Virus record (IMG/VR): IMGVR_UViG_3300049460_000150
Span: 15,113 to 79,112 of that record
Length of the DNA stretch: 64,000 nt
Direction: 5' to 3' (one strand)
Source of the DNA: a virus
Position numbers and translations under genes: made by a program. Of this stretch, positions 12,363-29,271 are shown piece by piece; position 1 is the stretch's first letter; every line of letters begins with the position of its first letter. The notes beneath the pieces were generated by a model that saw only the letters and a list, made by a program, of their open reading frames with translations, was not told the origin of the DNA and did no database searches.

Positions 12363-12406
12363 GGGGCCTGGAGAGGGGGCCTGGAGAGGGGGCCTGGAGA
12401 GGGGGC
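12363..12406 (+). repeat. 13-bp G-rich tandem repeat (GGGGGCCTGGAGA x3)
   Basis: seen directly; preceded by GCAAGAAGGTGG x2 near 12306-12329. Confidence 0.85.
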
Positions 12407-12611
12407 GGGATCAGGCCCGTTATATGGTGCAAAATGGTTGCAAAAATTTTTCAAAATTTTTTCCAAAACGTGAGACCTCTATACCCGACCCAAGCCCTCG
12501 CCACAAGCTCAAAAAAGCCCTATACTCTTAGTCATGCAGTCAGGTAAAGCAAGGTCCCGGAAACGGGACCACGCAAGGCCCCTGCTAACCCTATCAATCT
12601 GATATAAGGAA

Positions 12612-13436
12612 ATGACCATGAAAACCGCTGTCCAATCCACGCAAGGCCAAGGCACCACTACGTCCATCGACTATACCGTCCTGACGCTGGCAATCGCAAA
12701 CGCTGCACTGTCGCGCCGCGCCGCGCTGCACATGGAGCTGGCCGTATCGCTGATTCACTTCACGCAAGAAACGGGCGGCACTGACGCGACCGGCAAGGCC
12801 AACATGAAGGCCATCTACCATGGCGCGGGTTATCTGTGCATGGCTAAGAGTGACCGCGATTATAAAACGGTTAATCGTCGCTTGAATGCCATGGCTAAAG
12901 TGTTCGATAAAATCGGCTCCAGCACGGTCAACGAATGGATCGAGAACAAAGGCGATACAGATAGTATGCTCGCCTACGTGCAAACTGAATTGCTGGCGTA
13001 TGGCTTCGATACGTTGGATGATGTACTTGATTATGTTGGCGTAGAAACTAACAGAACCCGTGCGCCGCGCCAACCAGCCGCGCCGGTAGCAATCACGGTC
13101 CCGGAAACGGGACCAGCACCGGCAGCAGCAGCAGCGCCAGCGGTAGCAGTTCTGCCAACGTTCGACGCGGCACAAGTGCGCGCTGAAATGATGGCTAACA
13201 TGTCACCCGATGCGATCCGTGAATTCTGCGCGCAAATGCTGGCCGATGTCGCTGCACTGGAGCAAGCACAGATTGACGCTGAAACGGCAGCAGCAGCAGC
13301 GCCAGCAGCAGCAGCAGCAGCAGCAGCACCGGCAGCAGTCGTGCCGATGAATAGCAAGGCACGCAAACAGGCAAAGAAACAGGCGCATATCGCGGCGCAG
13401 CAGCAGCAGCAGCAGCAGCAGCGCGCAGCAGCATAA
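12612..13436 (+). CDS. unknown protein, paralogue B, with poly-Ala/poly-Gln tail
   Basis: 274 aa, AAGGA RBS; same core as 11247; 18-bp element upstream, inside and downstream. Confidence 0.8.
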   Translation: MTMKTAVQSTQGQGTTTSIDYTVLTLAIANAALSRRAALHMELAVSLIHFTQETGGTDATGKANMKAIYHGAGYLCMAKSDRDYKTVNRRLNAMAKVFDKIGSSTVNEWIENKGDTDSMLAYVQTELLAYGFDTLDDVLDYVGVETNRTRAPRQPAAPVAITVPETGPAPAAAAAPAVAVLPTFDAAQVRAEMMANMSPDAIREFCAQMLADVAALEQAQIDAETAAAAAPAAAAAAAAPAAVVPMNSKARKQAKKQAHIAAQQQQQQQQRAAA

Positions 13437-13517
13437 TGTGGCACGGTAGCGGTCCCGGAAACGGGACCGCATCGCAAGTAAATAACGGTCCCGTTAACGG
13501 GACAGGCACCGGAGGAA

Positions 13518-13640
13518 ATGTACATGCAATGGATCGTGTCTGAATTGGCCGTTTGGCCGCTGTCGCATTTTGTCGGGCTGGCGCTGGATGTCGCCGTGAT
13601 CGTTTGGCTGTGGAAGTCCACGCCTATCCGTTTGAAATAA
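13518..13640 (+). CDS. 40-aa hydrophobic membrane peptide (below the ORF-track cutoff)
   Basis: GGAGGA RBS; MYMQWIVSELAVWPLSHFVGLALDVAVIVWLWKSTPIRLK; bracketed by 18-bp elements. Confidence 0.7.
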   Translation: MYMQWIVSELAVWPLSHFVGLALDVAVIVWLWKSTPIRLK

Positions 13641-13674
13641 CGGTCCCGTTTCCTGGACCTTCACCGGAGGATTT

Positions 13675-13920
13675 ATGTCTGAATTCAACATGGCCGCATG
13701 GCTGAAAAAGCGTTTGGCTGATCCATCGCTTTCGACCACGGAGTATTTACATCACGAGCGTGCTTTGCAGGACATCGAATTTCGCCAGCGTGTGCTGGAC
13801 GCGGAGTATGCCCACAAGGAACGTATGCTGGCGCTGGAGGCCGAACAGGCTGATTTCCAGCGCCGCATCGGCGCGGCACATGCCAAATTGGACGCGCTCG
13901 GCGCTCCGCGTTTTTCGTGA
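13675..13920 (+). CDS. small coiled-coil hypothetical protein
   Basis: GGAGGA RBS, 81 aa, bracketed by 18-bp elements. Confidence 0.75.
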   Translation: MSEFNMAAWLKKRLADPSLSTTEYLHHERALQDIEFRQRVLDAEYAHKERMLALEAEQADFQRRIGAAHAKLDALGAPRFS

Positions 13921-13968
13921 ACAAAACGGTCCCGTTTCCGGGACCGGCACCGTTGAAAGGGTTTCCAA

Positions 13969-14349
13969 ATGGCTGGCATGAGCGACAATCCCCTCGTGGG
14001 GGACTACACCAAGGGCATTTCCAAGGGTCGGCAATACTTCGTGGAGTTGCGCACGAGGTTCTTCCTTGAGAAAGCTGACCTGAAACACGTCACTTTGGAC
14101 CTCCAAATGGGGCTGTTCAAGGAGGCAAAGGCGTTCACTGACGCTTTCGTGAAGCTGAATCACCTAGACCGTTTTGGGCCGGTGCCGGTCCCGAAAACGG
14201 GACCGAAAAGCGTTGCTTTGCGTTCAACTCCATTGGCGCAGAAGCAACGAGTTATCCACAGGCCGACTTCGACAATTGCGAAAAACGCAAGCCTGAAAGT
14301 TTCTGCGTTGCAAGACATTAGGTTGCTTTACATGCAACTTTGTGGATAA
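13969..14349 (+). CDS. hypothetical protein (3' end overlaps DnaA boxes)
   Basis: 126 aa after an 18-bp element; stop codon lies within the DnaA box at 14341. Confidence 0.5.
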   Translation: MAGMSDNPLVGDYTKGISKGRQYFVELRTRFFLEKADLKHVTLDLQMGLFKEAKAFTDAFVKLNHLDRFGPVPVPKTGPKSVALRSTPLAQKQRVIHRPTSTIAKNASLKVSALQDIRLLYMQLCG

Positions 14350-14472
14350 CTCGCGTTTTTCTGTGGATAGTTTTTCTGGCCCTGTGAATAACTTATTTTT
14401 GCCTAAAAAATAGGCAGAAAACAGCGTTTTTTGTGGATAAGTCGGTGGATAACGCTAAAAAGCTGTGGATAA
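14252..14472. promoter_or_regulatory. cluster of seven DnaA boxes
   Basis: TTATCCACA 14252(+); TGTGGATAA 14341, 14432, 14464; TGTGGATAG 14362; TGTGAATAA 14383; GGTGGATAA 14444 (all six on the minus strand). Confidence 0.85.
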
Positions 14473-14476
14473 ACCG

Positions 14477-15086
14477 GCTTGATAGTCTCATCCACTTTCG
14501 GGGCGAGCGCCTGAAATTTCGGGTTTTCTGTAACGAATGATGGGCCGAATGGTCTAGACCATTTGTGGTCATTTTGACAGGATTTTTGGGAGGATGATAC
14601 TATCATCCCCCCATTTGCTTGCACATCGGACGAGAAAATGCAAGCGCTAAATCTGCCTAAAAATGAGGCAAATCGTTGTGCAGCGCAATATTTTGGCCTT
14701 TGGATGATAGTCTCATCCCCTTTTGGGGGCCAGGACAGGCACCGGGCGATGGCGAGGTCCCGGAAACGGGACCGGAGCGGCGGGTAGGAACCACAGGGAG
14801 GGGATGCAGACGTGATGGCGATGAAATGGGCTTGGCTTTGCGCTCGATTTTGCGCTCGCTTTTGCGCTCGCTTTTGCGCTCGCTTTTGCGCTCGATTTCC
14901 GATCACTTTTGCCTTCGCTTTTGCGCTTGGTTTGTGGTAAGGGGACGGCACCGGCTTTTCCTTTCCTTTCGTTATCTTCTCTCTTTTTCTAATTACTCTT
15001 TAGGGTTGAAGGGGGGATGATAGTATAAAAGGGTAAAGAGAAAAGAGTTACTTTTAAGAAATAAAGAGAGGATGAGACTATCATCT
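14477..15086. repeat. 17-bp palindrome family GGATGAKA-S-TMTCATCC (iteron/operator-like)
   Basis: 14477-14493, 14592-14608, 14702-14718, 15070-15086, plus a half-site at 15015; sister copy at 7941. Confidence 0.8.
14836..14930 (+). repeat. 12-bp tandem repeat TTTTGCGCTCG(C/A) x5 plus degenerate copies
   Basis: seen directly. Confidence 0.9.
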
Positions 15087-15208
15087 AAAAAATTCTGGAC
15101 CCCTGCCGGTCCCGGTCCCGTCGCCAACTAATGCCCAATTTTTAGGCAGTGTTTTCGGTGCCTTTTCCGACCCCAAAAAGTTGCCGAAAAGTGCATAAAA
15201 TGCCCCTC

Positions 15209-15245
15209 AAATTTGCCTAAAATTTGCCTAAAACTTGCCTAAAAA
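15209..15245 (+). repeat. 11-bp tandem repeat AAATTTGCCTA x3
   Basis: seen directly; one-helical-turn period. Confidence 0.8.
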
Positions 15246-15701
15246 TTGAGCATTTCTCGTGCTGCCGATCCACATCCTGATCCACATCCACATCCAAAAT
15301 CTGCACCAATTTTCGTTAAGGGGAACATCCATGCGCAACGTCATTCCGACCCAAAAGCGGTCATCACTTTTAGCCTCCCTCACCCGCCCAATTTCCATAC
15401 CCGCCTGGGTGCCCATTTTCATCACCCTCACCAACATGGTTTCCATCACCATTTTGGTCATCGCCAACCGAGACATCTTCGCAGCATGGTTCCACGGCTA
15501 AATGCAAGGGGTAAAGCTGCCGCCCTCCCACTGCCCGGTCCCGTTTCCGGGACCCGCCACAACCCTGGCCCCAGCATGGACCCCCAAAGCGATCAGAATC
15601 GCCCACAGGGCGTTTTTGGCTTATAATGAGTACCGTTCCACCACTGGCTCCATAATCGCCACCTGAGCGGTTTTAGAGCCTTCTAACAAAGGAGTGACAA
15701 A

Positions 15702-16049
15702 ATGACATCCCACCACACTACCCCGGCCCCGGCCCCGGCCCCGGCCCGGGACGAGACCGTTTCCAACCCCCGCGCCCACCACCTCGGCCATCGCCTTTAC
15801 CTCTCCCCTTTGGCGGCGATTAAATCCATACTCCCGGCCACCACTTTTTACGCGCCCAATTTCGCCTCCAAATGCCAAGACACGCTCATGGAAATGACCG
15901 AACCATTCGATGGTGACGATTTGTTCGTCGCCCTCAACCTCCTGGCCCTCTCGGAAGGCATCCTGCTTTATCGCTTTTACGAGCCGCAAATTACCACCCT
16001 CAATCACGCCGTCACCATCATCAAATACTACGCAATAAGGAAGCCTTAA
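15702..16049 (+). CDS. hypothetical early protein
   Basis: GGAGTGACAAAATG start signal; first gene after the control region. Confidence 0.65.
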   Translation: MTSHHTTPAPAPAPARDETVSNPRAHHLGHRLYLSPLAAIKSILPATTFYAPNFASKCQDTLMEMTEPFDGDDLFVALNLLALSEGILLYRFYEPQITTLNHAVTIIKYYAIRKP

Positions 16050-16051
16050 AA

Positions 16052-16609
16052 ATGGCTATTTCAAGCCCAAAACCACCAAAGCCGCCGAAGCCAGCACCCA
16101 AAGTCAAGCCCACTGGCCGTAAGACCTCCTGGCCCACTAAAATTGACGCACCACCGGAGGCTCTTGCACTGTACGAAATGATCTCGTCCCTGCAACACAG
16201 CACGGCGTTCAAGACTTGCCACCCATATCAAGGTGCCACCAGCAAAAATACGGGCATTCCGATGTTCAAGTTTGAAGGGCGAGTCCATGCGATGCCTTAC
16301 ATCATCTGTTCCTTCATGGGAATCGAGTACGGCACCCGTAACTGCAAAACCTACGGCTGCATGAACCCTTTCCACTATTCGCCTCCACCGCGAATTTCGG
16401 GGGCGCAAATGGCCCATATTGACCTGCCAATGCCAACGCTGGCACCGGACTATCACGACCTCCTGGAATACTACGTCGAGGAAGTGGGAATACAGCCCAA
16501 TTACACCGCACTTCGCGCTGCAATTCCCACTGACGACATCAGTGACGCCGCCTTGCGGGCGGCAGTGCAAGCTTGGCCCGGTCCCGGTCCCGGAAACGAG
16601 ACCCTTTAA
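16052..16609 (+). CDS. protein with degenerate His-Me/HNH finger domain
   Basis: CHPYQG...G.P...H...CKTYGCMNPFH pattern. Confidence 0.55.
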   Translation: MAISSPKPPKPPKPAPKVKPTGRKTSWPTKIDAPPEALALYEMISSLQHSTAFKTCHPYQGATSKNTGIPMFKFEGRVHAMPYIICSFMGIEYGTRNCKTYGCMNPFHYSPPPRISGAQMAHIDLPMPTLAPDYHDLLEYYVEEVGIQPNYTALRAAIPTDDISDAALRAAVQAWPGPGPGNETL

Positions 16610-16631
16610 GTCCCCCACCCCAGGAGTAATC

Positions 16632-16976
16632 ATGAACGTCCTCACCTTTAGCACCATCGGGCTGCAAAATCCGAACGTCACCACCACCAATTACACCGCC
16701 ATCCAACACGCTGGCGTCGTCTTCACCCTCATCAACGGGGAAACGCACGTTTCCGTGGCCCAGCCGGACCAGAAACCGGACGGCTTTGCCGTGTATGGTC
16801 GCAGCCCAGAGGGTATGGCTGAGTGGATCGCTGATTTCGATAGCGAATTGCACTCGATGCTCTTTGCATCCACTCTGTCCTACGTCATGGGCGTGCCAAT
16901 CGAGGATAAAGTCTTCAACGTGGACGCCATTTCTGCGGCAATCTTCACCCTCAACAATCAAGGGCAACCGAACTAG
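16632..16976 (+). CDS. hypothetical early protein
   Basis: AGGAG RBS before ATG 16632. Confidence 0.65.
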   Translation: MNVLTFSTIGLQNPNVTTTNYTAIQHAGVVFTLINGETHVSVAQPDQKPDGFAVYGRSPEGMAEWIADFDSELHSMLFASTLSYVMGVPIEDKVFNVDAISAAIFTLNNQGQPN

Positions 16977-17034
16977 CCATGGGCTAAAGCCGTTTCCCCC
17001 TAATCTTCTAACCCTTTTCCTATAGGAATACTCA

Positions 17035-17322
17035 ATGAGTCTCGGTCAACGTAAAATGCGCGCCAAAGCTGATGCCTTGGCACCCTCTGTTCTGATCTGC
17101 GGCCACCGTGGCATGGAGTGGATCGTCATCACGGGTGGCGGTTTCAGCACCCATTTCTACTACGGCAAAGAGGGACCCAACGGTCCCGTTTCCGAGACCA
17201 ATACCGGCCTCTTGGCAAGCGTCTCGGACGACTTCAAACCATGGGCCAAGAAACTGCTCAAGGATTACAACAATTTGAGGACTCAAAATGAGAACAAAGT
17301 TCCAGTTAAGCGCCGAGCCTAA
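17035..17322 (+). CDS. hypothetical early protein
   Basis: AGGA RBS; contains an 18-bp element. Confidence 0.6.
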   Translation: MSLGQRKMRAKADALAPSVLICGHRGMEWIVITGGGFSTHFYYGKEGPNGPVSETNTGLLASVSDDFKPWAKKLLKDYNNLRTQNENKVPVKRRA

Positions 17323-17548
17323 CGAAGTGCATCTGATCCGCAACGCGAACTTTAAAAAGATTGCGGTGCTGATCCCATGCAATAAGGACGATGAGGTTCG
17401 TGAGCTGGTGTCCATGATCGAAAAAGGACCCTTTCCTGGCTTCCAAAACGTCACAAACTGCACAACCGCTGGCCCCAGTGTTCACCTCAGTTTTGCCAGC
17501 GCCGATGATGCTCGTGCTTTCTTCAACTTTATCTGGAGTACCCAATAA
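17288..17548 (+). CDS. hypothetical early protein
   Basis: GAGGA RBS; coupled to the next gene. Confidence 0.6.
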   Translation: MRTKFQLSAEPNEVHLIRNANFKKIAVLIPCNKDDEVRELVSMIEKGPFPGFQNVTNCTTAGPSVHLSFASADDARAFFNFIWSTQ

Positions 17549-17946
17549 TGGAACTCTATTACAAACCTGACGCCTCCTTTGTTGGCGTCGGCGCGACCAT
17601 CAAGACCCAATCCTGGGGCCTCGTTTACATCACCCAGATAGAATACCCAAAGGTTACGATCCGTTTCCAAACCGGACGCACCTTGACCAGCGATGCCGGG
17701 ACCTTTGGTTGCGAGTGGCGTAGGACGCAAGAGGAAATAGACGCGGCTGTCGCCGAAGCCCGTACTAATCGCCAGCCAACAATCTGGGCCGTTGCCGTGC
17801 CACTTTTGGTTGAGGGTCAAGACATCCATGAAGTGCGCCAAATCCTGGCCGAGTTGTTCGCAGGACTCCAGCACAGCAATGTGGTATCCATCAACACGGA
17901 AGTGTCGGGCATCAGTACCGGCGTTTATCGGGGAGACTTGGAATGA
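17548..17946 (+). CDS. hypothetical early protein
   Basis: GGAG RBS; TAATG coupling. Confidence 0.65.
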   Translation: MELYYKPDASFVGVGATIKTQSWGLVYITQIEYPKVTIRFQTGRTLTSDAGTFGCEWRRTQEEIDAAVAEARTNRQPTIWAVAVPLLVEGQDIHEVRQILAELFAGLQHSNVVSINTEVSGISTGVYRGDLE

Positions 17947-18173
17947 AAATCTTTGCCAATCTGTTCGGCTCTCGTGAACCACACGAAGCCATGGGGCGCA
18001 TGATCGAAGAAACGCTCGATGAATCACGAGCGCAACTGTTCCAGACCCGTCTGGAAAAGGAGCGCGTACTTAGCGATGAATCGAAGCTCATGCGCCGCAT
18101 CGAACGCCTCGAAAAAGAGGAAAAAGAACACGCCGAAAAGCGTGAAGCCCAAAGGGCCTCAACCCTGCTGTAA
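17943..18173 (+). CDS. small coiled-coil protein
   Basis: ATGA overlap; charged helix. Confidence 0.6.
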   Translation: MKIFANLFGSREPHEAMGRMIEETLDESRAQLFQTRLEKERVLSDESKLMRRIERLEKEEKEHAEKREAQRASTLL

Positions 18174-18224
18174 AGGGTCCCGGAAACGGGACCATAACAC
18201 CACCTTATCCAAAGGATAATAGCC

Positions 18225-18677
18225 ATGAACACCCTCTCCCAAGAGAACATCAAGAAAACCTACTTCGGTGTCGTCACAGATATCAGCGAGATTTTCGAGC
18301 GCTTCCTGTACTGCCACGATGCCACCTTTCACCCAGACCGTGGAAGCCTCACGCCGCGCCCTGAAGGCTTCTATTTCTGCCCCGGTCGCGGCACGACTGT
18401 CGAAACGTGGCTGAATTGGGGAAAGCCGCGCCCTAAATCGGGCAATCTGTCGGTCAAACCGACCTACAAAGTCGCCACCGCTGTCTTGAAGCGATCCATG
18501 GAGGGCAAAATCGGCGGTTTTCAGATCATACCCTGGGAACACGCTGGTCACGCCCTCATCATTGGCAGTGACAGCACGGGAATTGCCTCTGTTTGGCTGG
18601 CGTTTATCCCGCTGGACAAACTCCCGACGATCAATCAGGACAACACGCCCATCTGGGACGGCAAAGCCGATGTCTAA
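18225..18677 (+). CDS. hypothetical early protein
   Basis: AAGGA RBS after an 18-bp element. Confidence 0.65.
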   Translation: MNTLSQENIKKTYFGVVTDISEIFERFLYCHDATFHPDRGSLTPRPEGFYFCPGRGTTVETWLNWGKPRPKSGNLSVKPTYKVATAVLKRSMEGKIGGFQIIPWEHAGHALIIGSDSTGIASVWLAFIPLDKLPTINQDNTPIWDGKADV

Positions 18678-19107
18678 ACCGACTCCTGATAACCCCTCGC
18701 GCCGTGCCATGGCCCGCGTCCCGAATCCCCTGCCAATTCCCACCAATTGCCCGCACTGCGGCGCTCTGGTCTTTTGTGTAGGCAACCAAACGATCTATGG
18801 TAGGCCGTTTGGTGACTGGCCGTACGCCTACCAATGTGCACGCCCCTCCTGTGGGGCCTATGTCGGCCTGCATCCGTTCACAAACTACCCACTTGGCACG
18901 CTGGCGGATGAGCAAACTCGTCGCGCTCGAAGTCTCGCCAAGGATTACTTCAACCCACTGTGGAAAAACCGGGTCATGACCCGCACCGAAGCCTATGCCT
19001 GGCTTGCGACCGTCATGAATCTCCCACCTGAGCTGTGCCATTTCGGCCTGTTCAACGTGGACCAGTGCAGCGCCGCAGTTAAACACATCATGGAGCGTAC
19101 AAAATGA
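18670..19107 (+). CDS. zinc-finger protein (DUF3268-like)
   Basis: CPHCG...C...CGAYVGLHP...PLGTLAD...R.EAY.WLA..M.L....CHFG.F....C pattern typical of this phage family. Confidence 0.7.
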   Translation: MSKPTPDNPSRRAMARVPNPLPIPTNCPHCGALVFCVGNQTIYGRPFGDWPYAYQCARPSCGAYVGLHPFTNYPLGTLADEQTRRARSLAKDYFNPLWKNRVMTRTEAYAWLATVMNLPPELCHFGLFNVDQCSAAVKHIMERTK

Positions 19108-19640
19108 CTCAAAATTTCGACACAAAAGAGAACCGCGCCAAGCAGTTTAAGCGCGGCCTCCGCGATGCCAAGACTGCCCAAGTCCCGTTTGGTCAATCCA
19201 ACGAGCTGGGAACCGTCGCCACGAATCTGGATCGCGCCTACCGCAAGGGCTGGATTGCGGGGCGCAATGAAGATACCCACCTCACGCCGCCTATCCCGAA
19301 CATCAAAACATCGGGCCGTTTGCACTGGCTGAAATACTTCCACGAGTTGACGCCCAAAGAGCGGGCCGAACTCGATTACATCACCGATGACACCAACTCC
19401 TTCCTGCGCCACCAAGGTCATGTGTACGACCTGGGTGAGTTTTCGCGCATCATCCCGCCCGAAGAAATCGGCACGCGCCATCTGCATCCTATGTGCCTGC
19501 ACGACTGGCACGGCGACTACGACAACTGGGACGCCTACCTGGGCGATTCGGCTTTTAGCATGGTCCTCATCCGTTATGAGCGTGACAGCAGCGGCGACAT
19601 CAACGCCGAACGGGCCGTGATCGGACACGCATCATGGTAA
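19104..19640 (+). CDS. hypothetical early protein
   Basis: coupled ORF, 178 aa. Confidence 0.65.
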   Translation: MTQNFDTKENRAKQFKRGLRDAKTAQVPFGQSNELGTVATNLDRAYRKGWIAGRNEDTHLTPPIPNIKTSGRLHWLKYFHELTPKERAELDYITDDTNSFLRHQGHVYDLGEFSRIIPPEEIGTRHLHPMCLHDWHGDYDNWDAYLGDSAFSMVLIRYERDSSGDINAERAVIGHASW

Positions 19641-19903
19641 CGTACTTTGTTGAGGTGACGGACACCTACGGCGGCGAGGCAAACTACTGCTGGGCGCACC
19701 ACTTCAAAGTGGAAGCAAAAACCGAGCGCGGCGCTGTCCGTAAAGTGCGCCGTGAAATGGAGCTTGGTTCTTCTCGCTGCGTGATGGATGCTGGCGACAT
19801 GCAACGCTGGGACATTAAAGGCGCTGCCATTTGCATGTTCGTGGAGTGGTACGACGAGACCCGTCACGGACTCGATAAATACGCTAAACAGCGTGACCTG
19901 TAA
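19634..19903 (+). CDS. hypothetical early protein
   Basis: EVTDTYGGEANYCW motif; stop abuts an 18-bp element. Confidence 0.65.
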   Translation: MVTYFVEVTDTYGGEANYCWAHHFKVEAKTERGAVRKVRREMELGSSRCVMDAGDMQRWDIKGAAICMFVEWYDETRHGLDKYAKQRDL

Positions 19904-19946
19904 CGGTCCCGTTTCCGGGACCTTTCCACTTCAAAGGAGTAACACC

Positions 19947-20135
19947 ATGAAATCACAGAATGGTTACGTGTTTTTCTACGGCAGCAAGCGCGTCGAACTG
20001 TACGCCGACAGCCTGTATGCGGCAAAGGTGGCGGCAATTGCGCATTTCAAAGCGCCGAAGTCGAAGCAACACATGGTCCACGGCGCACTCGCTGAAAAAG
20101 CGGGAAGCGCCGTGATCCACACGCCAACGGAATAG
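19947..20135 (+). CDS. 62-aa hypothetical protein bracketed by 18-bp elements
   Basis: AAGGAG RBS; elements at 19905 and 20134. Confidence 0.7.
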   Translation: MKSQNGYVFFYGSKRVELYADSLYAAKVAAIAHFKAPKSKQHMVHGALAEKAGSAVIHTPTE

Positions 20136-20185
20136 TCCCGTTTCCGGGACCTCACCTCACCACAACCTTTAAACGGAGTGACAAA

Positions 20186-20479: not shown

Positions 20480-20483
20480 CAAA

Positions 20484-20795: not shown

Positions 20796-20797
20796 CC

Positions 20798-21061: not shown

Positions 21062-21062
21062 C

Positions 21063-21320: not shown

Positions 21321-21377
21321 CCCACGGTCCCGGTCCCGTTTTCGGGACCACACGCACACATTTTTTCGGAGAATAAT

Positions 21378-21887: not shown

Positions 21888-21935
21888 CACATAAGGGTCC
21901 CGTTTCCGGGACCTTTCCATATCAGGGAGAACGTC

Positions 21936-22151
21936 ATGAAATACCTACTCATTGCCCTACTGGCTGGTTGCGCACAACAACAGCCTATGCTTTACAACCC
22001 CTACAAGACGCCTGCAATGGCGCAGCAAGACAACCTGGAATGCCGCTATGAAGCGATGAAGGTTGAGGCCACGGTACAGAACGCGGCAATGGGCGTTTTC
22101 GCTCGCCAAGACGCCATGCGTATGTGCCTTCAAGTAAGGGGATACAAATGA
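21936..22151 (+). CDS. small lipoprotein
   Basis: MKYLLIALLAGC signal with LAGC lipobox; two further Cys. Confidence 0.7.
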   Translation: MKYLLIALLAGCAQQQPMLYNPYKTPAMAQQDNLECRYEAMKVEATVQNAAMGVFARQDAMRMCLQVRGYK

Positions 22152-22474
22152 GCGTCAAGACCGTAACAACCTCCGACCTCGAAGCTCGCATCCAAGAGCT
22201 GGAGGCCAAGGTCATGGATGACGACGAGCTGGAAGAGTTTCAAGCTCTCACCGATCTCCGCCACGACCTCGACTACTGCTGGCGTCAACCAGCAACGCTA
22301 ATCCGCGAGGCTGATTTCGTGGAATACGCCATGGAATTCCTGTACGAAGTCGGCGACCTCAAGAAAGGCGGCGTGGCCGACTCCTGCATCGACCAAGACG
22401 AGGCAGCGCGCATTGTCGAACAGGACTACCGTTTGTGCGTCCACGACGGTGAAGATTATCTCGTGAGGGCCTAA
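22148..22474 (+). CDS. acidic protein, ArdA-like antirestriction candidate
   Basis: D/E-rich; DFVEYAMEF...IDQDEAARIVEQDY resembles the ArdA C-terminal pattern. Confidence 0.45.
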   Translation: MSVKTVTTSDLEARIQELEAKVMDDDELEEFQALTDLRHDLDYCWRQPATLIREADFVEYAMEFLYEVGDLKKGGVADSCIDQDEAARIVEQDYRLCVHDGEDYLVRA

Positions 22475-22476
22475 CC

Positions 22477-22866
22477 ATGGCACGCATCTCAAACAGCCTG
22501 TCTCCGGCGCGTAAAGGGGACAAGATCGTTATCGAAGTCGGAAGCGAGCGCTATTGGGGCAACACCATCGCGCTTGCCAAGGCCGACATGAAGGAGCGCA
22601 ACCGGGGCGTGGTCACGGCCCCATCTTTCAAGGTCTGGTCTTCCGGCACAAGCGCCCCGCCTATTCTGCTGCAAGAGAACGGGCAAAAGCAGCCGACATC
22701 GGCGCTGCCGCTGTCGGTGGTCTGTCCGCTGTGCAAAGCGGGCCTCGCCCGACCCTGTATCAATGACAAGGGTGTCGTACTGCTGGACAAGCCACATAAA
22801 ACACGCATTCTGCTGGCGCGTAAAATGCTGCTGGCACCATCGAAAAAACGGAGCAAGAAAAAATGA
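22477..22866 (+). CDS. basic zinc-finger protein
   Basis: CPLCKA...PC...H..R motif, Lys-rich tail. Confidence 0.55.
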   Translation: MARISNSLSPARKGDKIVIEVGSERYWGNTIALAKADMKERNRGVVTAPSFKVWSSGTSAPPILLQENGQKQPTSALPLSVVCPLCKAGLARPCINDKGVVLLDKPHKTRILLARKMLLAPSKKRSKKK

Positions 22867-23552
22867 AAACCTCTCTCTACATCTGCGAGAAAGTCCACCG
22901 CGACTATCGCCCCATCGGCCCGTATTACCCACCCGTTACAGAGGTGGAGGACTACGAAAACACCGTCAGCATCCGCGCTGCCATGAAGGGCGCGGGACCG
23001 TACAAGACATGCACCTATCAAGGCCCTCTGTCAGCCTGGAAGGGCAAGACAGCGCTCACCGTCCCGCTGGTCGCGGTGCAATTCGATGACCAGGGCCAGT
23101 ACATGGCCTACGGCTGGCACCTGTTCAATGCCAACGACTGGAAGGTCCCGGAAACGAGACCTCTTTTCCAGGCGTTTGCCAGCGCCGTCGTGGCGCTTGC
23201 CAACTGCATCAAGAACGGCAATCAAGAATGGTATCGCATTTGGAACGATTGCCTCGACGGCTGGTGCAAGAACTACATGCCGAGCGGTTCTGGCTTCGAC
23301 AACGGCACGCAAATCGACCTGGAAGCGTCAGGCGAACACAAGCTGGTCTTCAACGTACACTACCACCACATGGACGAGCATGGTTGCTACGACGGCTGGA
23401 CCGAGCATCAGGTGATCGTGACGCCAAGCCTTTTGTTCGGCTTTACGCTGCGCATCACCGGCCCGAACCGCAACGAGATCAAGGACTTCATCTCGGACAC
23501 CTTCCATATCGCACTTTCCCAACAGGTGAATCCACACGAGTACAAGCCATGA
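22863..23552 (+). CDS. hypothetical protein (possibly a two-domain fusion joined at an 18-bp element)
   Basis: 229 aa; element at 23144 encodes VPETRP. Confidence 0.65.
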   Translation: MKTSLYICEKVHRDYRPIGPYYPPVTEVEDYENTVSIRAAMKGAGPYKTCTYQGPLSAWKGKTALTVPLVAVQFDDQGQYMAYGWHLFNANDWKVPETRPLFQAFASAVVALANCIKNGNQEWYRIWNDCLDGWCKNYMPSGSGFDNGTQIDLEASGEHKLVFNVHYHHMDEHGCYDGWTEHQVIVTPSLLFGFTLRITGPNRNEIKDFISDTFHIALSQQVNPHEYKP

Positions 23553-23920
23553 ACCAGCAACGTTTCCCATCGGTGGTGAAACTGATGGAAGTCTTCAACG
23601 ACGAAGCCACGGCACTCATGGCGCGAAAGGTGATGGAAATGTCGCGGGGCGAACTGCTGCGCACTGATGCAGGACGTTTCCGTGCCAACGAGTGCCTTAA
23701 TCCCCCGCCGCTGAATGATCTCCGTATGTACGTTATGAACAGCCTTGACCCTGGCCTGTTCGGTATCGAAACTGAGGAAATCAAGAGCGAGTATTTCGAC
23801 TACCTCAATGCCGGGGATGCGTATAACCCGACGGTCATCCTGTGGCGCGGAAAGTTTCGCGTCCAGGATGTGGCAACTTTCCGCGAACGAAATGAAAGGC
23901 TGGTGCGCAATGAAAACTAG
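23549..23920 (+). CDS. hypothetical early protein
   Basis: ATGA coupling; YLNAGDAY motif. Confidence 0.65.
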   Translation: MNQQRFPSVVKLMEVFNDEATALMARKVMEMSRGELLRTDAGRFRANECLNPPPLNDLRMYVMNSLDPGLFGIETEEIKSEYFDYLNAGDAYNPTVILWRGKFRVQDVATFRERNERLVRNEN

Positions 23921-24272
23921 CCACCAAAGCGGCAAGGCTATGCTTAGTGTAGAGAGGGATGGTGACGATCTGTACGCCAGCGCTTTCGCCCTCACTGGTT
24001 TGCATACAGAAGCCGCGCATTGTTGGTTTGGTGATGCCGTCTCTGATCTAGCCGTTTTCCACGACTGGATTCCGGCACAGTGCTTTCGTATGAAGGAGGG
24101 GGACAAGATGATCTTCAAGGTCAACTTTGAACAGACCTACTACCAAGGGGATGGTTACACCAGTGACGACGATGAACTTTTGGTGTTCACCAAGGCGGTG
24201 AAGTTGTATCACAAGCGCGGGGCCAAAGCGTCCCGTAAATCGCTCAAGAAATATTACAGGAGTGCGCAATGA
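23910..24272 (+). CDS. hypothetical early protein
   Basis: coupled ORF. Confidence 0.55.
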   Translation: MKTSHQSGKAMLSVERDGDDLYASAFALTGLHTEAAHCWFGDAVSDLAVFHDWIPAQCFRMKEGDKMIFKVNFEQTYYQGDGYTSDDDELLVFTKAVKLYHKRGAKASRKSLKKYYRSAQ

Positions 24273-24724
24273 ATCCTAAATACCAAAGGGGGCCTGACGG
24301 CAACTGCATCCCCGGCGATGCCGTCACGTATGCAGCGTATGGTCCCATCCCCGAAGCTTACGCTTTCCAAAACGAGGTGGGCGGCGTCGAAGTTCCCGCC
24401 ATCGTCCACCACTGGGGCTGGTCCACGACCTTTGGCCGCTGGGGCGCTGTGGTCACGTTCAAGAGCGGATGGCATGGCTTTACGTGGCCTTTCATCCGCC
24501 TGGGCGAATTCCCTTTCCAGACTGTGGAAGTGGAACCATTCCCAGGCTTAACCTTGACCATTTACGGTCGCGTCAAGGCCGTCACCCAGCCGGAGAAACT
24601 TCAGCAGGGTTACTACGTCGCCAAAGGCGGCATACCGATCCCTCGCTCGGAGCTGTACCGCGACGAGCGCGATGCCATCGAAAAAATCCTGCATGAAAGG
24701 TATCCCGAACATGCCAACCTTTAG
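24269..24724 (+). CDS. hypothetical early protein
   Basis: AGGAG RBS, ATGA coupling. Confidence 0.6.
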   Translation: MNPKYQRGPDGNCIPGDAVTYAAYGPIPEAYAFQNEVGGVEVPAIVHHWGWSTTFGRWGAVVTFKSGWHGFTWPFIRLGEFPFQTVEVEPFPGLTLTIYGRVKAVTQPEKLQQGYYVAKGGIPIPRSELYRDERDAIEKILHERYPEHANL

Positions 24725-24920
24725 CACAGGCAGATCGCCACCGCTCGTATCGCATGTCTTTGGACAGCCAAGGCAGCGCTACATCCAATGCCCTCATTGC
24801 TGTGAGCAAGTCTTTCTTCCAGCGGGGGCGTTTCGCGGCCAACAATTTACGCACACCGATGGGAAATGCGGCGGCGTTTTTGAGGTCTACTGGAACGCTA
24901 AAATTTGCGTTCGAACCTGA
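24711..24920 (+). CDS. small zinc-ribbon protein
   Basis: CPHC...H...CGG. Confidence 0.5.
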   Translation: MPTFSTGRSPPLVSHVFGQPRQRYIQCPHCCEQVFLPAGAFRGQQFTHTDGKCGGVFEVYWNAKICVRT

Positions 24921-24931
24921 AAGGAAACGCC

Positions 24932-25117
24932 ATGGACATCATCCGCCATTACGGAATGACCCGCGAAGAGTTTGCCAGCAAGCTTGGCAAGCATCCGTCC
25001 TGCTTTGAAAATTTCTTACGGCCTTTGTGCAATAACGGCAGCTATCACGCTTACACCACGCGGGATAAAGCGCTTGTCAATTGCCCAGAATGCCTAAAAC
25101 GTTTGAAGGGGAAGTGA
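24932..25117 (+). CDS. small Cys-motif protein
   Basis: AAGGA RBS; PLC...VNCPECL. Confidence 0.55.
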   Translation: MDIIRHYGMTREEFASKLGKHPSCFENFLRPLCNNGSYHAYTTRDKALVNCPECLKRLKGK

Positions 25118-25118
25118 A

Positions 25119-25439
25119 ATGAAAGCAGTCGTAGAATTTGGCCGACCACAATCGGCCCTCCCCGCTGGCGCACCGTGCGGCGTTTCAGGCCATCAGACTT
25201 GCGAATCACTGGCGGCGGCTAACCACCTCGCCCTGCATTTGCGCCATGTGCTGGGGAATCGGCAGCATGAGTACCACGGCCCCGATGACTTTCTCGTGTC
25301 GCGGGATAACCCGCGCATTGTGTGGTGGGCCAATGACCATTCCTGCTGGGTGGCAGTGACGATTTTCAAGCCTAATTACGAACCTGGACCTTACGCGGCC
25401 CAGGCCGACAAATTTGCCAAAATAGCGAAGGAGCTGTAA
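25119..25439 (+). CDS. hypothetical early protein
   Basis: coupled ORF. Confidence 0.55.
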   Translation: MKAVVEFGRPQSALPAGAPCGVSGHQTCESLAAANHLALHLRHVLGNRQHEYHGPDDFLVSRDNPRIVWWANDHSCWVAVTIFKPNYEPGPYAAQADKFAKIAKEL

Positions 25440-26023
25440 TGCGCAACGTACCAACACCAATCCAGTATCAGGCGCTCATTGATTATGCCGCCGCTAACGG
25501 TTTCTACTGGAAGCACAAACTCAGCACGGCGTGGATGAACGGCACCGACACGCCTTTGCTGCGCCAAATACGCAACGAATTCGGACCCGGCTGGCTCACG
25601 AAATTCAAGCTGCGCACCTACCGCCTGGAACAGATTTCGGAAGTGGCGAAACACTACATCCTTGCCGCCATCTGGGCCGACGCGCCGGAAGGCACGCAAC
25701 CTCGCGCCTCGCAAGAGACCCAGGAGGAAGCCTTTCGCCAGTGCGCAAAGTTCATCATGGAATGCGGCCCTCTGTTCGACGCTGCCATGGCGCGTTTCGA
25801 ACGTGGCTACGGCACGCATCCAGACGCGGGCAGTGCAGAGGCCGCTTTCGGCCACGACTTCTGGCTGACGCGGCAAGGCCATGGGGTTGGCTTCTGGGAC
25901 CGCAAGGAACTGGGCAAGGAACTGGGACAAGCTTTGACCGACGCGGCCCATGCAAGGCGCGAGGCCAATTACGAGTTCTACCGTGGCTGGTTCTACTTGA
26001 GGGCTGATTATGAAGCCCGGTGA
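25439..26023 (+). CDS. hypothetical early protein
   Basis: AAGGAG RBS; GHDFWLTRQGHGVGFWDR motif. Confidence 0.7.
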   Translation: MRNVPTPIQYQALIDYAAANGFYWKHKLSTAWMNGTDTPLLRQIRNEFGPGWLTKFKLRTYRLEQISEVAKHYILAAIWADAPEGTQPRASQETQEEAFRQCAKFIMECGPLFDAAMARFERGYGTHPDAGSAEAAFGHDFWLTRQGHGVGFWDRKELGKELGQALTDAAHARREANYEFYRGWFYLRADYEAR

Positions 26024-26201
26024 TACCATCACGTTCCGCCATTACGGCGTCGAAAAGACTGAGACCATCGGGCGCATCAGTCCTGATGGCACAATCGTCT
26101 ACACGACGATGTGCCGCTGGCTGCACAAGGAAAGCATTTTGTCCGTCAACAACGTTCCCGTTTCCGGGACCTCAACCAAGGAGAAGAAAGATGAAATTTG
26201 A
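26010..26201 (+). CDS. small hypothetical protein
   Basis: GAGG RBS; contains an 18-bp element. Confidence 0.55.
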   Translation: MKPGDTITFRHYGVEKTETIGRISPDGTIVYTTMCRWLHKESILSVNNVPVSGTSTKEKKDEI

Positions 26202-26709
26202 TCCAAAATATCCGGCGCGCACCAAGGGCGGCGAGACTGTCGCTTTCCTTACCACGGAATCGCGTGATCCAAAGTTCCCGTACATCGGCTACGTCGGCGA
26301 TGAGGACACGCTGACCAAATGGGACAAGGATGGCGCACCACAATATGGGTCCACCTACGACAACGGCTCGCTGGAAAACATCCCGTTTGAAGGCGTGGTT
26401 TACATCGCCATTTACTCTGACGGGAAACGCACCGGGACCTACACGCACTTGATCCCACGAGGCATCCCAAACGTAAGCGAAATGCACCTCCCGTTGGTGT
26501 CCGTCCTCCGCCTACCCTATTCGGTCATGCCTGGAGTGCAGGACCATATCACAACCCTGCTGGCGGAAGCGGAGGCGCTGAAAGAGGAAATGGCCGCGCT
26601 GCCAACACTTGGCGGCATCGTTGACGAATTCGCGGACATCAAACCGCCGAAACCACCCGAAGGTCCGTCGCCGATCCATGACCCGTGGGGTCTCGGAAAA
26701 ATGCCGTGA
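26191..26709 (+). CDS. hypothetical early protein
   Basis: AAGGAG upstream of ATG 26191. Confidence 0.6.
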   Translation: MKFDPKYPARTKGGETVAFLTTESRDPKFPYIGYVGDEDTLTKWDKDGAPQYGSTYDNGSLENIPFEGVVYIAIYSDGKRTGTYTHLIPRGIPNVSEMHLPLVSVLRLPYSVMPGVQDHITTLLAEAEALKEEMAALPTLGGIVDEFADIKPPKPPEGPSPIHDPWGLGKMP

Positions 26710-26810
26710 AAAAGTTGAGCATGGACGCCCTCACGAACTGGGGCGATCCCGCCGTGCGCAAACAGTTCGTTCCACCTCCACCACCTCCCAAACCTCCGAA
26801 GGAGTATCAA

Positions 26811-27632
26811 ATGTCCCAGCTCGCCGAACAGCAAGAAGTTGTTCAACAACTCAACCAGATCATCCGCATTTTCAAGAACTCTAAGGGCGCGATTCGCCCG
26901 CACTTCATGATGACCGGCCCCAGCGGTTCCGGTAAGTCCTTCCTGACCGAAGAACTGGCCGATGAACACGATCTGGCCTTCCTGGAAATCAACGCGGCCC
27001 AGCTCACCAAGGAAGGCACGGCTGGCAACAGCCTGTCCAAAGCGCTGACGCCACTGACCGGCAAGAGCGCCCAGTTGACGCTGTGCTTTGTCGATGAATT
27101 CGACAAGCTGTTCATCAGCGGTAACACGAACTCCCAGCTCGCCCACGAGACCACCAACGGCGTGCAAAACGAGTTCCTGAAAGTGCTGGAATCGAAGACC
27201 ACCTCGGTGTATGGCGAGTACGGAAAATACCATGACGTGAACGTGAACAACGTGTTGTTCGTGTTCGCCGGGGCCTTCAACGGCGAAGAAGACTTGACGA
27301 TCGATCGCCTCCGCGACTTCGGCATCAAGACCGAATTCCTGGGCCGCGTCGGTCTGGTCTACAACCTGAAAAAGCTGTCGCTGGAATCGATGCGCGCTGC
27401 GCTCGAAAACAGCCCTTTGCTCGCCCGCTACCTGGGCTTGTTCCAGAAGGCGCAGAAGGCCGATGTAGTGGCCGCGCTGATGCCTTACATCGCCAAGCAC
27501 TTCGACAAGAACACGCTGGGCATCCGCATCATCAACACGCTGCTGCACCAGTATTTCATCAACGGCGGCAAGCTGCCGGTGCTGGCAACGGAGAACCTGG
27601 CCTTCCAGACTTCCATGGAACTGGCCTCGTAG
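26811..27632 (+). CDS. ClpX-like AAA+ ATPase (minimal, no ZBD, no IGF loop)
   Basis: GPSGSGKS Walker A, FVDEFDKL Walker B, GVQNEFLKVLE, LFVFAGAF, FGIKTEFLGRV, LGIRII; AAGGAG RBS before ATG 26811. Confidence 0.8.
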   Translation: MSQLAEQQEVVQQLNQIIRIFKNSKGAIRPHFMMTGPSGSGKSFLTEELADEHDLAFLEINAAQLTKEGTAGNSLSKALTPLTGKSAQLTLCFVDEFDKLFISGNTNSQLAHETTNGVQNEFLKVLESKTTSVYGEYGKYHDVNVNNVLFVFAGAFNGEEDLTIDRLRDFGIKTEFLGRVGLVYNLKKLSLESMRAALENSPLLARYLGLFQKAQKADVVAALMPYIAKHFDKNTLGIRIINTLLHQYFINGGKLPVLATENLAFQTSMELAS

Positions 27633-27671
27633 GGTCCCGGAAACGGGACCCTCTAATATAAGGGGAATTTT

Positions 27672-27884
27672 ATGAAGACCACACAAGACGGATTCCACAC
27701 GATGCGCGGCCACGTCGCGGATGGTTGTGAGATTGCGATGGCTAACGGCGACACGCTGACGCTCAAGGCCGTCATCAACGGCTGGCAACTGGTCGATCAA
27801 ACCGGGCGCAATTTCGGCCTCGCCACCAACTCGGCGCACGTCATCGCGTGCCTGGTATTTGCCCATCCTTCGGAGGACATCTAA
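27672..27884 (+). CDS. small hypothetical protein
   Basis: RBS after an 18-bp element. Confidence 0.6.
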   Translation: MKTTQDGFHTMRGHVADGCEIAMANGDTLTLKAVINGWQLVDQTGRNFGLATNSAHVIACLVFAHPSEDI

Positions 27885-28180
27885 TGCTCACCACACCACG
27901 CAATCGCCTGCTGACGCATGGGCGCAGCTCCAAGACGTACATGGCCTGCATGGACACGCTGTACGAAACCGCCGACGCCGAACTCAATTCGGACGAGACC
28001 GTTCACGATGAGTTCCACCGGCTGCGGGCGAAGTACAGGACTTTTACTAAATCGTTTATACGGTTTATACGGCCAAAGGTTTTGGCTATCAACAGCCGCG
28101 ACAAGCTGGGCATTTTCGAGGAACAAGTCACGACTGTTTGCGAGCAAATTTACAAGGACTGGGAGAGGGTCACACCATGA
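27884..28180 (+). CDS. hypothetical protein
   Basis: GGAGG RBS, TAATG coupling. Confidence 0.6.
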   Translation: MLTTPRNRLLTHGRSSKTYMACMDTLYETADAELNSDETVHDEFHRLRAKYRTFTKSFIRFIRPKVLAINSRDKLGIFEEQVTTVCEQIYKDWERVTP

Positions 28181-28686
28181 AGCCAGCTAAGACCAAGCGC
28201 GACGAGTTTTTCAAGGACCTGTCGGCGCAAAAGCGCGTGGATAACGGGACGATCCGCGCCCTCAAAATCTACTTCAACAATCGCCAGCACTCACCCAATA
28301 AGGAGCGCTACGAGCGCTTGAACCTGCTGCCCACGCTCGGCCCATATCGCCTGGAGATGCAGTGCGAGGCCGACTACATGCACCTGTTGACCAAAGCGTG
28401 TTACATCAACCCAGACTCCAAACATGAGGTATGGCGCAACACGGAATTCACGCGCTTCTTCGGCACCCAGCAACGCAACATCATGAACGACCGCCACAGC
28501 CTGTATCTGGTGGACTTCCAAGACGAGCAAACGGACGGCAGCGCCAAGTGGGAACGGCGCAACCATCCAGACTGCGAAGCAGGCTTCTTTGTTCCCATTT
28601 ATGAGATGCGTGACAGCAGTGGCAATTCGTTCCAATTTATCATCCGCTCGTGGCAGCAGGGCGGCGACCGTATCACCATCGTTTAA
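28177..28686 (+). CDS. hypothetical protein
   Basis: ATGA coupling. Confidence 0.6.
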   Translation: MKPAKTKRDEFFKDLSAQKRVDNGTIRALKIYFNNRQHSPNKERYERLNLLPTLGPYRLEMQCEADYMHLLTKACYINPDSKHEVWRNTEFTRFFGTQQRNIMNDRHSLYLVDFQDEQTDGSAKWERRNHPDCEAGFFVPIYEMRDSSGNSFQFIIRSWQQGGDRITIV

Positions 28687-28698
28687 GGAGCCTCAAAA

Positions 28699-29013
28699 AT
28701 GAAAGCCAAAATGTTTGCATACCTGACGCAACAGGACATGCACATCCTGTCGGCGGAAGACCTCAAGGACGTTGAGAAGGTTTCCAAGCGCGTCTACCTG
28801 TCATCGCACGACATGAGCGCCCAGGGTTGGGTGTTGGTCGGCCACGTTGAAGCCGACATCGAAATCCTGCCGCCTAACGCTGTGGTCGAAAACGCTGTGG
28901 TTGCGTTCCGCGCCAAGGCCACGGAAATCCGCGCCAAAGCGACGGCGGAATGCACCCAGCTCGAAGGGCTGGTCAACCAACTGCTTGCCATCGAAAATGG
29001 GGTGCAACCGTGA
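28699..29013 (+). CDS. hypothetical protein
   Basis: AAGGAG RBS. Confidence 0.65.
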   Translation: MKAKMFAYLTQQDMHILSAEDLKDVEKVSKRVYLSSHDMSAQGWVLVGHVEADIEILPPNAVVENAVVAFRAKATEIRAKATAECTQLEGLVNQLLAIENGVQP

Positions 29014-29234
29014 AACAGATCGGCGAACCTAAAACCACCACGGCCCGCAACGGTTTGGGCCACGACGCAACCAGCACGCGGACGAACTACGTGATCGAAA
29101 AAAGCGATGTCGGCATGACGCGGGAAAACTACCGTGGCAAAGGGCATTCGCAATACACGTTCGAAGGCTCGGACGTGGGCAAGGAAATCGCAGTCTACAC
29201 GGACGGCACCGGCTGGACGTGCTGGGTATTTTAA
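29010..29234 (+). CDS. small hypothetical protein
   Basis: GTGA coupling; stop abuts an 18-bp element. Confidence 0.55.
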   Translation: MKQIGEPKTTTARNGLGHDATSTRTNYVIEKSDVGMTRENYRGKGHSQYTFEGSDVGKEIAVYTDGTGWTCWVF

Positions 29235-29271
29235 GGTCCCGTTTTCGGGACCTCTAACAACGGAGTGACAA

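Follow-up and report, generated by a model that had tools for sequence, protein, structure and literature searches.

Twenty copies of one palindrome along a single arm of a phage genome of the JWF/Lumi/Seuss group: a candidate dispersed operator array with lineage-specific sequence

Why does a phage carry twenty copies of one short palindrome along a single block of small genes and none anywhere else? The question is posed by IMG/VR virus record IMGVR_UViG_3300049460_000150, a 79,112-bp viral record rated complete, of which bases 15113-79112 were analyzed as one 64,000-nt stretch (the window, whose coordinates are used throughout unless stated otherwise). The element is an 18-bp inverted repeat, GGTCCCG-N4-CGGGACC, with 13 exact and 7 one-mismatch copies, all 20 of them within 12553-29252; the corresponding shuffled-sequence expectations are 0.00 and 0.34. 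A first-pass annotation of the window had reported 20 palindromes in 16.7 kb and none elsewhere, and this was confirmed for the remainder of the 79,112-bp genome, including the 15 kb beyond the window, where no copy was found. The chance that all 20 would fall inside 16.7 of 79.1 kb is ~1e-13. Among two-mismatch matches, one at 16580 is a tandem half-site adjoining the site at 16586, and another at 31955 is poor. The sites exist, they are confined to one arm of the genome, the pattern is family-wide, and the arms of the palindrome are under purifying selection. With moderate confidence, we interpret the copies of the 18-bp element as operators dispersed along the arm and read by a dimeric DNA-binding protein that would have co-evolved with them.

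We first describe the sites in relation to genes, which were called with a simple codon-bias caller trained on long open reading frames (ORFs). Thirteen of the 20 sites are intergenic (one touching a stop codon), though the array region is 84% coding (P ~1e-6). Two or three of the sites inside ORFs are 30-90 nt upstream of the next start, and those at 13097, 14187 and 23144 lie well within ORFs. Of all 20 sites, fifteen or sixteen end 13-49 nt before a start codon. Six copies in all are within ORFs and are translated through in frame. On the + strand the centre reads GAAA at 8 sites, AAAA at 1, TTTC at 8, TTTT at 2 and TTAA at 1, a recount that matches the earlier tally of 9 GAAA/AAAA, 10 TTTC/TTTT and 1 TTAA. 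The first-pass annotation had noted the absence of a U-tract, and no T-tract follows the 18-bp sites on the transcribed strand (flanks were listed, and a terminator scan flagged only reverse-strand reads), whereas the phage's own canonical hairpin terminators at 11031 and 12238 do have T-tracts. A conserved -35/-10 promoter motif adjoining the 18-bp sites was not found.

The array opens with site 1 (12553-12570; exact, GAAA), which lies 3′ of a predicted promoter at 12498-12526 and 47 nt 5′ of the start of gene X (12612-13436, + strand), the first gene past it. Site 2 (13097-13114; exact, GAAA) falls within the disordered Pro/Ala linker of gene X, where it encodes VPETG, and site 3 (13451-13468; exact, GAAA) is 14 nt past the gene X stop. 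Site 4 (13487-13504; one mismatch, TTAA) is 13 nt ahead of the next start; site 5 (13642-13659; one mismatch, TTTC) is 1 nt past a stop and 15 nt ahead of the next start; site 6 (13928-13945; exact, TTTC) is intergenic; and site 7 (14187-14204; exact, AAAA) is within a weak ORF, 13969-14349. The flank GGCACCGG is common to sites 4, 6 and 7, with site 7 presenting the site-plus-flank unit of sites 4 and 6 in inverted form. Sites 8 (14756-14773; exact, GAAA) and 9 (15537-15554; exact, TTTC) lie in a non-coding hub. One mismatch, giving CGAGACC, recurs at site 10 (16586-16603; GAAA), in the final codons of ORF 16052-16609 and preceded by the tandem half-site at 16580; at site 11 (17182-17199; TTTC), within ORF 17035-17322; and at site 17 (23144-23161; GAAA), within ORF 22863-23552 at the exact start of homology to shorter orthologues in relatives. 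Site 12 (18176-18193; exact, GAAA) is 2 nt past a stop and 31 nt ahead of the next start, site 13 (19905-19922; exact, TTTC) is 1 nt past a stop and 24 nt ahead of the next start, and site 14 (20134-20151; one mismatch, TTTC) overlaps a stop codon. Sites 15 (21332-21349; exact, TTTT; preceded by a tandem half-site at 21326) and 16 (21896-21913; exact, TTTC) are intergenic. Site 18 (26154-26171; one mismatch, TTTC) is 19 nt ahead of a start at 26191, site 19 (27633-27650; exact, GAAA) adjoins the stop of an AAA ATPase gene, and site 20 (29235-29252; exact, TTTT) adjoins a stop and is 19 nt ahead of the next start.

Evidence that the array is more than a peculiarity of one genome comes from its relatives. 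Polymerase and primase group the phage with Lumi, JWF, Seuss and ~80-kb IMG/VR genomes; the primase is 63% identical to that of Xylophilus phage Lumi, 53% to Achromobacter phage JWF and 44% to Caulobacter phage Seuss, and by sequence the phage is a member of this siphovirus group. Complete genomes of relatives were rotated to the primase start and over-represented perfect inverted repeats were sought. In 8 of 8 genomes, the present one included, a different palindrome was found, with arms of 6-9 bp, a centre of 1-4 bp and 3-20 copies. Besides GGTCCCG-N4-CGGGACC (20 copies), these are GGTTCAA-N-TTGAACC in G001 (8), GTGCAG-NN-CTGCAC in G002 (7), (A)GTGCGAC-N-GTCGCAC(T) in G003 (10), GGTTCAAA-A-TTTGAACC in G005 (3), (G)GTTCGT-N-ACGAAC(C) in JWF (10), TTACTAG-N-CTAGTAA in Lumi (6) and TTTACCT-S-AGGTAAA in Seuss (5, at +3.3 to +19.3 kb). 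Copies are confined in all eight to about +2.8 to +20.7 kb from the primase start, with none in the other ~60 kb. As in the window, most copies in the relatives lie between a stop codon and the next ribosome-binding site (RBS), and the first is immediately 5′ of the first gene of the terminal repeat. No repeated perfect palindrome was found in Acinetobacter phage TCUP2199, whose primase is 36-39% identical, and the pattern may stop at that distance.

The comparison also shows how the sites change. A site stands just 5′ of gene X in the present phage, JWF, G001, G002 and G003, in each case with the sequence of its own lineage. Because positionally equivalent sites carry lineage-specific sequence, all copies in a genome must have changed in concert, which is expected of cis-acting sites that track one trans-acting factor. 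The primases of G001, G002 and G003 are 81-85% identical, yet the three genomes have three unrelated palindromes; the palindrome thus changes faster than the backbone, and in all copies together. Within the GTGCAG-NN-CTGCAC lineage, the arms of orthologous sites in three close relatives are identical at 96 of 96 positions, as compared with 76% in the flanks and 50% in the 2-bp centre, and the two central bases vary freely among copies and among orthologous copies. In the GGTTCAA lineage, arms of orthologous sites are 97% identical and flanks 79%. No site has been lost or has decayed in the alignable sequence of the relatives. The centre is only 1-2 bp in 6 of 8 lineages, and hairpins predicted for the relatives' RNA have energies of -1.5 kcal/mol in Lumi and -4.7 to -8.2 kcal/mol in the others.

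At the level of sequence, the 1-2 bp centres, the freely varying centre and the weak hairpins of the relatives favor a dimer on B-form DNA over a hairpin. An operator for a dimer would predict that all copies have one sequence, that selection acts on the arms and that the centre matters little; these features would not be predicted of a hairpin kept for its stability or of a protein that reads a loop. The A/T-rich centre of the present array, which occurs in both orientations (9:10:1), fits a spacer that is not contacted. The first-pass annotation had preferred a double-stranded DNA site bound by a dimer to an RNA terminator, and with dyads kept while their sequence changes we share that preference; DNA as the recognized form, the binding of a protein, the identity of that protein and its effect on transcription are what we infer.

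The location of the array suggests what such sites might control. By our gene calls, 8020 to 55513 is a single rightward arm, with structural genes on the opposite strand. It encodes a PrimPol/D5-type primase-helicase (8567-11008), an SNF2 helicase, a family A polymerase, SbcCD-like nucleases and an NAD ligase. It is also hyperplastic, in that of ~45 small ORFs almost none has a homologue in relatives whose primases are 53-63% identical. In the records of Lumi and JWF, genes immediately 3′ of the primase recur at both ends. The Lumi paper reports a direct terminal repeat of 2,298 bp, mapped with PhageTerm, and a 1,748-bp terminal repeat is annotated in Seuss. Judged by synteny, sites 1-7 probably lie within a terminal repeat and the remaining sites in the following 15 kb. 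A 127-bp identity between the two ends of the present record is an assembly overlap and not a biological terminal repeat. The label "early-gene region" in the first-pass annotation is a reasonable inference: by synteny with Lumi and JWF, the arm would begin in the terminal repeat at one physical end of the genome.

On the operator reading, the element would be a recognition site in duplex DNA, bound by a sequence-specific symmetric dimer that is most likely encoded by the phage. Each lineage would possess its own half-site and a binding protein that has co-evolved with it, resembling the immunity specificities of other phages. The sites would be strung along an arm of small, fast-turnover genes that starts in the terminal repeat, mostly in the gaps between a stop codon and an RBS. 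Since no promoter accompanies them, their likely action would be a roadblock to transcription or local occlusion, by which transcription of the whole arm could be silenced or throttled. The effect would be to shut off the early genes during lytic growth, or else to keep the arm repressed in a carrier or prophage state. Transcribed copies in the present phage would also fold as a stable RNA hairpin, and effects at the mRNA level may arise as a by-product.

Several observations weigh against this interpretation. The spacing of half-sites varies among lineages (centres of 1 to 4 bp), which is awkward for one rigid homologous dimer. The lack of promoter motifs at the sites excludes the role of a classical operator, so that a roadblock must be assumed. 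The right arm of the Seuss palindrome contains the Shine-Dalgarno (SD) sequence and sites everywhere are near start codons, features that translational control at the RNA level would explain equally well. The hairpin of the present phage, at -12 to -14 kcal/mol, is highly stable, and its centre shows a uniformity well beyond what an unconstrained spacer would need. Some sites here share extra flanks, one of them inverted, showing that spread by duplication has occurred. As for the binder, the model of gene X has no recognizable DNA-binding fold, a candidate helix-turn-helix (HTH) protein encoded at 34426-34812 has co-occurrence as its one link to the sites, and a conserved Arc-like protein, judged from its residues, does not co-vary with the palindromes.

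These three proteins differ in what can be said for them. The first-pass annotation had named the products of the genes starting at 11247, 12612 and 34426, of which the latter two remain candidates. An AlphaFold model of gene X (pLDDT 81) has a helical N-terminal domain, a disordered linker and long C-terminal helices, and no match to it exceeded the helical background (best Z 5.5) in Foldseek searches of the PDB or in a VIA wide search. Gene X is a remote positional orthologue of JWF gp002 (hhalign 83%, E 8.5e-6) and the most divergent of the conserved genes, with 35-45% identity across palindrome types as compared with 80-85% for the primase. Its 18 closer homologues (47-75% identity) come from metagenome assemblies only, and its profile had no match in viral and JGI metagenome contigs. 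The gene at 11247-12209 (+), which is followed by a canonical terminator, proved to be a paralogue of gene X (35% identity over 133 aa, E 8e-26), and the pair form a helical protein family with the motif YKTVNRR. Between the two genes lie a strong terminator, a threefold tandem repeat (12363-12400) and a promoter-like stretch.

The second candidate, at 34426-34812 (+), is modelled with two HTH domains, of which the C-terminal one is XRE-like; its Foldseek neighbours are the XRE-type proteins DdrO, 434 repressor and C-proteins, with high probabilities and E-values >0.2. The gene is present in all palindrome-bearing genomes but G005, where a search found no homologue, and the first residues of the putative recognition helix vary among lineages. 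The Arc-like ribbon-helix-helix gene (Pfam Arc E 7e-4) lies just beyond the window at genome positions 13552-13794 (+), antisense in the late structural module, and is kept in place in JWF (gp017), G001, G002, G003, G004, G005 and Lumi, where it is unannotated. Its product was rejected as binder of the palindromes, as the residues of its DNA-facing strand (A, S/T, R) are near-invariant across unrelated palindromes.

Of the alternatives, the one that survives best, although we regard it as unlikely, places the element in RNA as an intercistronic hairpin of the transcript. Such a hairpin could block 3′-5′ exonucleases and so stabilize upstream cistrons, mark a processing site, attenuate transcription, or allow an RNA-binding protein of the phage to control translation of the downstream gene. 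The hairpin predicted here is strong, with 7 GC-rich pairs and a GAAA/UUUC tetraloop at -12 to -14 kcal/mol, and would be certain to form in mRNA; 13 of 20 sites are intergenic and 15-16 are within 50 nt 5′ of a start on a single, long transcribed strand. In Seuss an anti-SD-like ACCU pairs with the AGGU of the RBS, and sites in JWF and Lumi are 2-5 nt from the RBS. Structure alone, however, does not require 20 identical sequences, and the 7 imperfect copies contain zero compensatory or wobble changes, three having the identical C-A mismatch. The centres of 1-2 bp in the relatives go with weak hairpins. RNA-binding proteins usually read loops, and one lineage has invariant arms around a would-be loop that is free to vary; in the present phage the loop is inverted in half of the copies. 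Finally, the sites lack the T-tract of the phage's own terminators, and a search of Rfam gave no match.

Somewhat less probable again is the proposal that the palindrome is a selfish or duplicative element of the PeSL, REP or MITE kind, which spreads in either orientation and then acts as a microhomology junction for the gain, loss or swapping of cassettes. The hyperplasia of the arm is in keeping with this, as are the six in-ORF copies that are translated in frame. Seven pairs of sites in the present phage share 6-10 extra flanking bases, as compared with ~0.5 pairs expected; the common unit is GGTCCCG..CGGGACC-GGCACCG(G), one occurrence of which is inverted, and tandem half-sites stand beside two copies. 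Together these features indicate that new sites arise by duplication of a slightly larger unit, which would explain some of the in-ORF copies, namely that at 13097 in the gene X linker and that at 23144 at the start of a conserved domain. The ORF that contains the latter, 22863-23552, is itself fusion-like, joining a unique 95-residue N-terminal part, the peptide encoded by site 17 and a domain that is a free-standing early protein of ~130-160 aa in all relatives.

We also located homology breakpoints, taken as the points where blocks of homology end when relatives are compared, both within one palindrome type and across types; the pairs are non-independent. Eleven of 101 lie ≤30 bp from a site against 4.7 expected, about twice expectation. 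Against the proposal, ~90% of breakpoints are away from sites, and the excess is confounded by a preference for intergenic DNA that sites and breakpoints share. Orthologous sites are stably retained with arms under purifying selection, and a mobile element would leave unexplained the lineage-specific words at equivalent positions. Pfam scans of all predicted proteins detected no transposase, RAYT/HUH, integrase or homing endonuclease, and a mobile element of 14-18 bp would be very short. The recombination site delimiting single-gene cassettes that the first-pass annotation had envisaged is weakly supported, and the extra flanks shared by a few sites point to local duplication. In our view recombination at the sites is a by-product and not their function.

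A slim chance remains for sites that belong to a host protein, such as a regulator, a nucleoid protein or a defence factor, which the phage would read, recruit or titrate via its first-entering DNA, each lineage being matched to its host. The hub carries host DnaA boxes, hence sites for host factors do occur, and the palindromes differ among phages of different hosts. On the other hand, the three close phages with primases 81-85% identical have three unrelated palindromes, and the sites are scarce in bacterial genomes. In a set of one genome for each of 185,579 bacterial species, the exact 18-mer has 72 scattered matches with ≤2 per contig, so that the palindrome is not a bacterial genome repeat. 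A common host REP element, which the first-pass annotation had raised as a possibility, is ruled against by this count and by the absence of a RAYT in the Pfam scans. The 72 matches showed no CRISPR-array-like spacing when the exact TTTC/GAAA form was scanned, and the sole double match is not an array. We know of no regulator whose site matches any of the half-sites.

Searches in viruses were likewise negative: megablast of the array region against 50,697 phage records gave no match, the exact 18-mer is present in 4 IMG/VR contigs that are all unrelated, and the 120+ metagenome contigs with it are singletons, none related to the present phage. The Seuss palindrome has a single one-mismatch copy in each of two Caulobacter genomes. 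This 15-mer, TTTCCCTTAGGTAAA, lies in an AT-rich intergenic gap at 1001-1015 of contig 48 in one of them (G006) and occurs once in the second, and it could be a host operator or chance.

The most elaborate proposal, to which we assign a similarly slim chance, is a co-evolving "address system" in which a candidate phage protein and the palindromes silence the first-entering arm and also capture single-gene cassettes in either orientation, forming an integron-like platform for gene acquisition in a family with lytic or carrier-state growth, with gene X and its paralogue, as a new fold, supplying the site-specific factor. The "protein-coating" system suggested by the first-pass annotation found no specific support.

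Interspersed with the array is a second set of signals in the 1.35-kb non-coding hub (14340-15700), which combines DnaA boxes, a second palindrome family, TTGCCTAAAA repeats, a 12-bp tandem repeat and a promoter. By synteny the hub is likely to be the neighbourhood of the terminal-repeat boundary. At least six DnaA boxes (TGTGGATAA / TTATCCACA and near variants) are clustered at 14249-14480; the cluster could be an origin or a DnaA-titrating region, and could be a counterpart of the DnaA-box-containing injection-stop region of T5. The second palindrome, GGATGAKACTMTCATCC, has copies at 7941-7957, 14477-14493, 14592-14608, 14702-14718 and 15070-15086, with 9 strand-matches against 0.02 expected. 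Four copies are in the hub; an exact fifth lies where the terminase gene and the primase operon diverge, in a gap of 80 bp. One hub copy overlaps the -10 of the best sigma-70-like promoter predicted in the region (14574-14603). GGATGAKACTMTCATCC is probably an operator of the classical, promoter-linked type, and the conserved Arc-like protein may be its binder. It is associated with promoters and the 18-bp element is not, which supports separate roles for the two families. The 12-bp tandem repeat (TTTTGCGCTCGC-like, ~7 units) and several TTGCCTAAAA repeats are at 14836-14925 and 15200-15250. Further along, the AAA+ ATPase gene at 26811-27632 (PHROG 5534) has relatives, 55-69% identical, in 39 otherwise unrelated viral contigs of 70-90 kb and is apparently a mobile gene among phages; no repeated palindrome was found at those 39 loci.

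If the sites are operators, then block-wise control of the first-entering, host-takeover arm would be a form of regulation that is undescribed in the JWF/Lumi/Seuss group. The family would also provide one site-protein pair in eight or more natural variants of specificity, three of which are in cultivable phages (JWF, Lumi and Seuss), and the evolution of recognition specificity and heteroimmunity would be directly testable there. Should the palindromes prove to be cassette junctions or RNA operators instead, these phages would be well suited to the study of either. In uncultured relatives the palindromes mark the boundaries of the early arm and of its transcription or translation units, and they are a cheap fingerprint for lineage typing. 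A dispersed phage operator array is a known kind of system, and as far as we have found none has been described for this family; the Lumi paper mentions the terminal repeat and no repeats of the palindrome kind.

How does the array compare with known systems? In phiC31, products of repressor gene c are said, in work credited to Ingham et al. 1994 and Wilson et al. 1995, to bind conserved inverted repeats (CIRs), which are reportedly ~17 bp in length, several adjoining early promoters. Likenesses are the perfect or near-perfect inverted repeat, the many conserved intergenic copies in early DNA and the position of one copy ahead of a candidate regulator gene. Differences are that the repressor and the adjacency to promoters are known in phiC31, whereas here there are candidate binders and no adjacent promoter, that the present array would start in a terminal repeat, and that eight lineages show wholesale switching of the sequence. 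The SPBRE of Bacillus phage SPbeta is reportedly bound by the master repressor MrpR/YopR, a protein with a recombinase-like fold. It too is palindromic and is dispersed through the early DNA of a large phage, where a single phage regulator reads it; phage group and sequence differ, and no binder with a recombinase-like fold was found here.

The PeSL elements of T4-type phages, in work credited to Arbiol et al. 2010, are said to combine a stem-loop with an early promoter, to mark cassette junctions and to give rise to excised circles. Like them, the present element punctuates a hyperplastic region of small ORFan early genes and shows some duplication with flanks. Unlike the longer PeSL, it is only 14-18 bp, has no promoter and is associated with a weak excess of breakpoints (11/101 against 4.7). 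Intrinsic terminators and REP elements share with it a GC-rich hairpin just past stop codons; in contrast to terminators, the sites have no T-tract, occur in both orientations and repeat one identical sequence, and in contrast to REP the palindrome is not repeated in bacterial genomes (≤2 per contig) and no RAYT was found. The boxB of lambda nut, with one or two oriented hairpins, a GNRA-like loop and a boxA, differs from an array of 20 copies in which half have a UUUC loop.

The stoperators of Cluster A mycobacteriophages are asymmetric sites of 13-14 bp to which a monomer binds; they follow the direction of transcription and occur on both arms of the genome (PMC9283540). Those of phages such as L5, Bxb1 and TipsytheTRex resemble the present sites in numbering tens of copies in short, promoter-free intergenic gaps; they halt elongation, and their consensus differs among sub-lineages along with the repressor (PMC9283540, PMC6550527). 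The present sites differ in being perfect dyads without orientation (9:10:1) on one arm only. The first-pass annotation had recognized the palindrome as neither a stoperator nor a PeSL, and that judgement holds, the sites being neither asymmetric and oriented nor joined to an early promoter. Taken together, these comparisons suggest that in architecture the array is closest to the phiC31 CIRs and SPBRE, and that its presumed promoter-free action is closest to that of the Cluster A stoperators.

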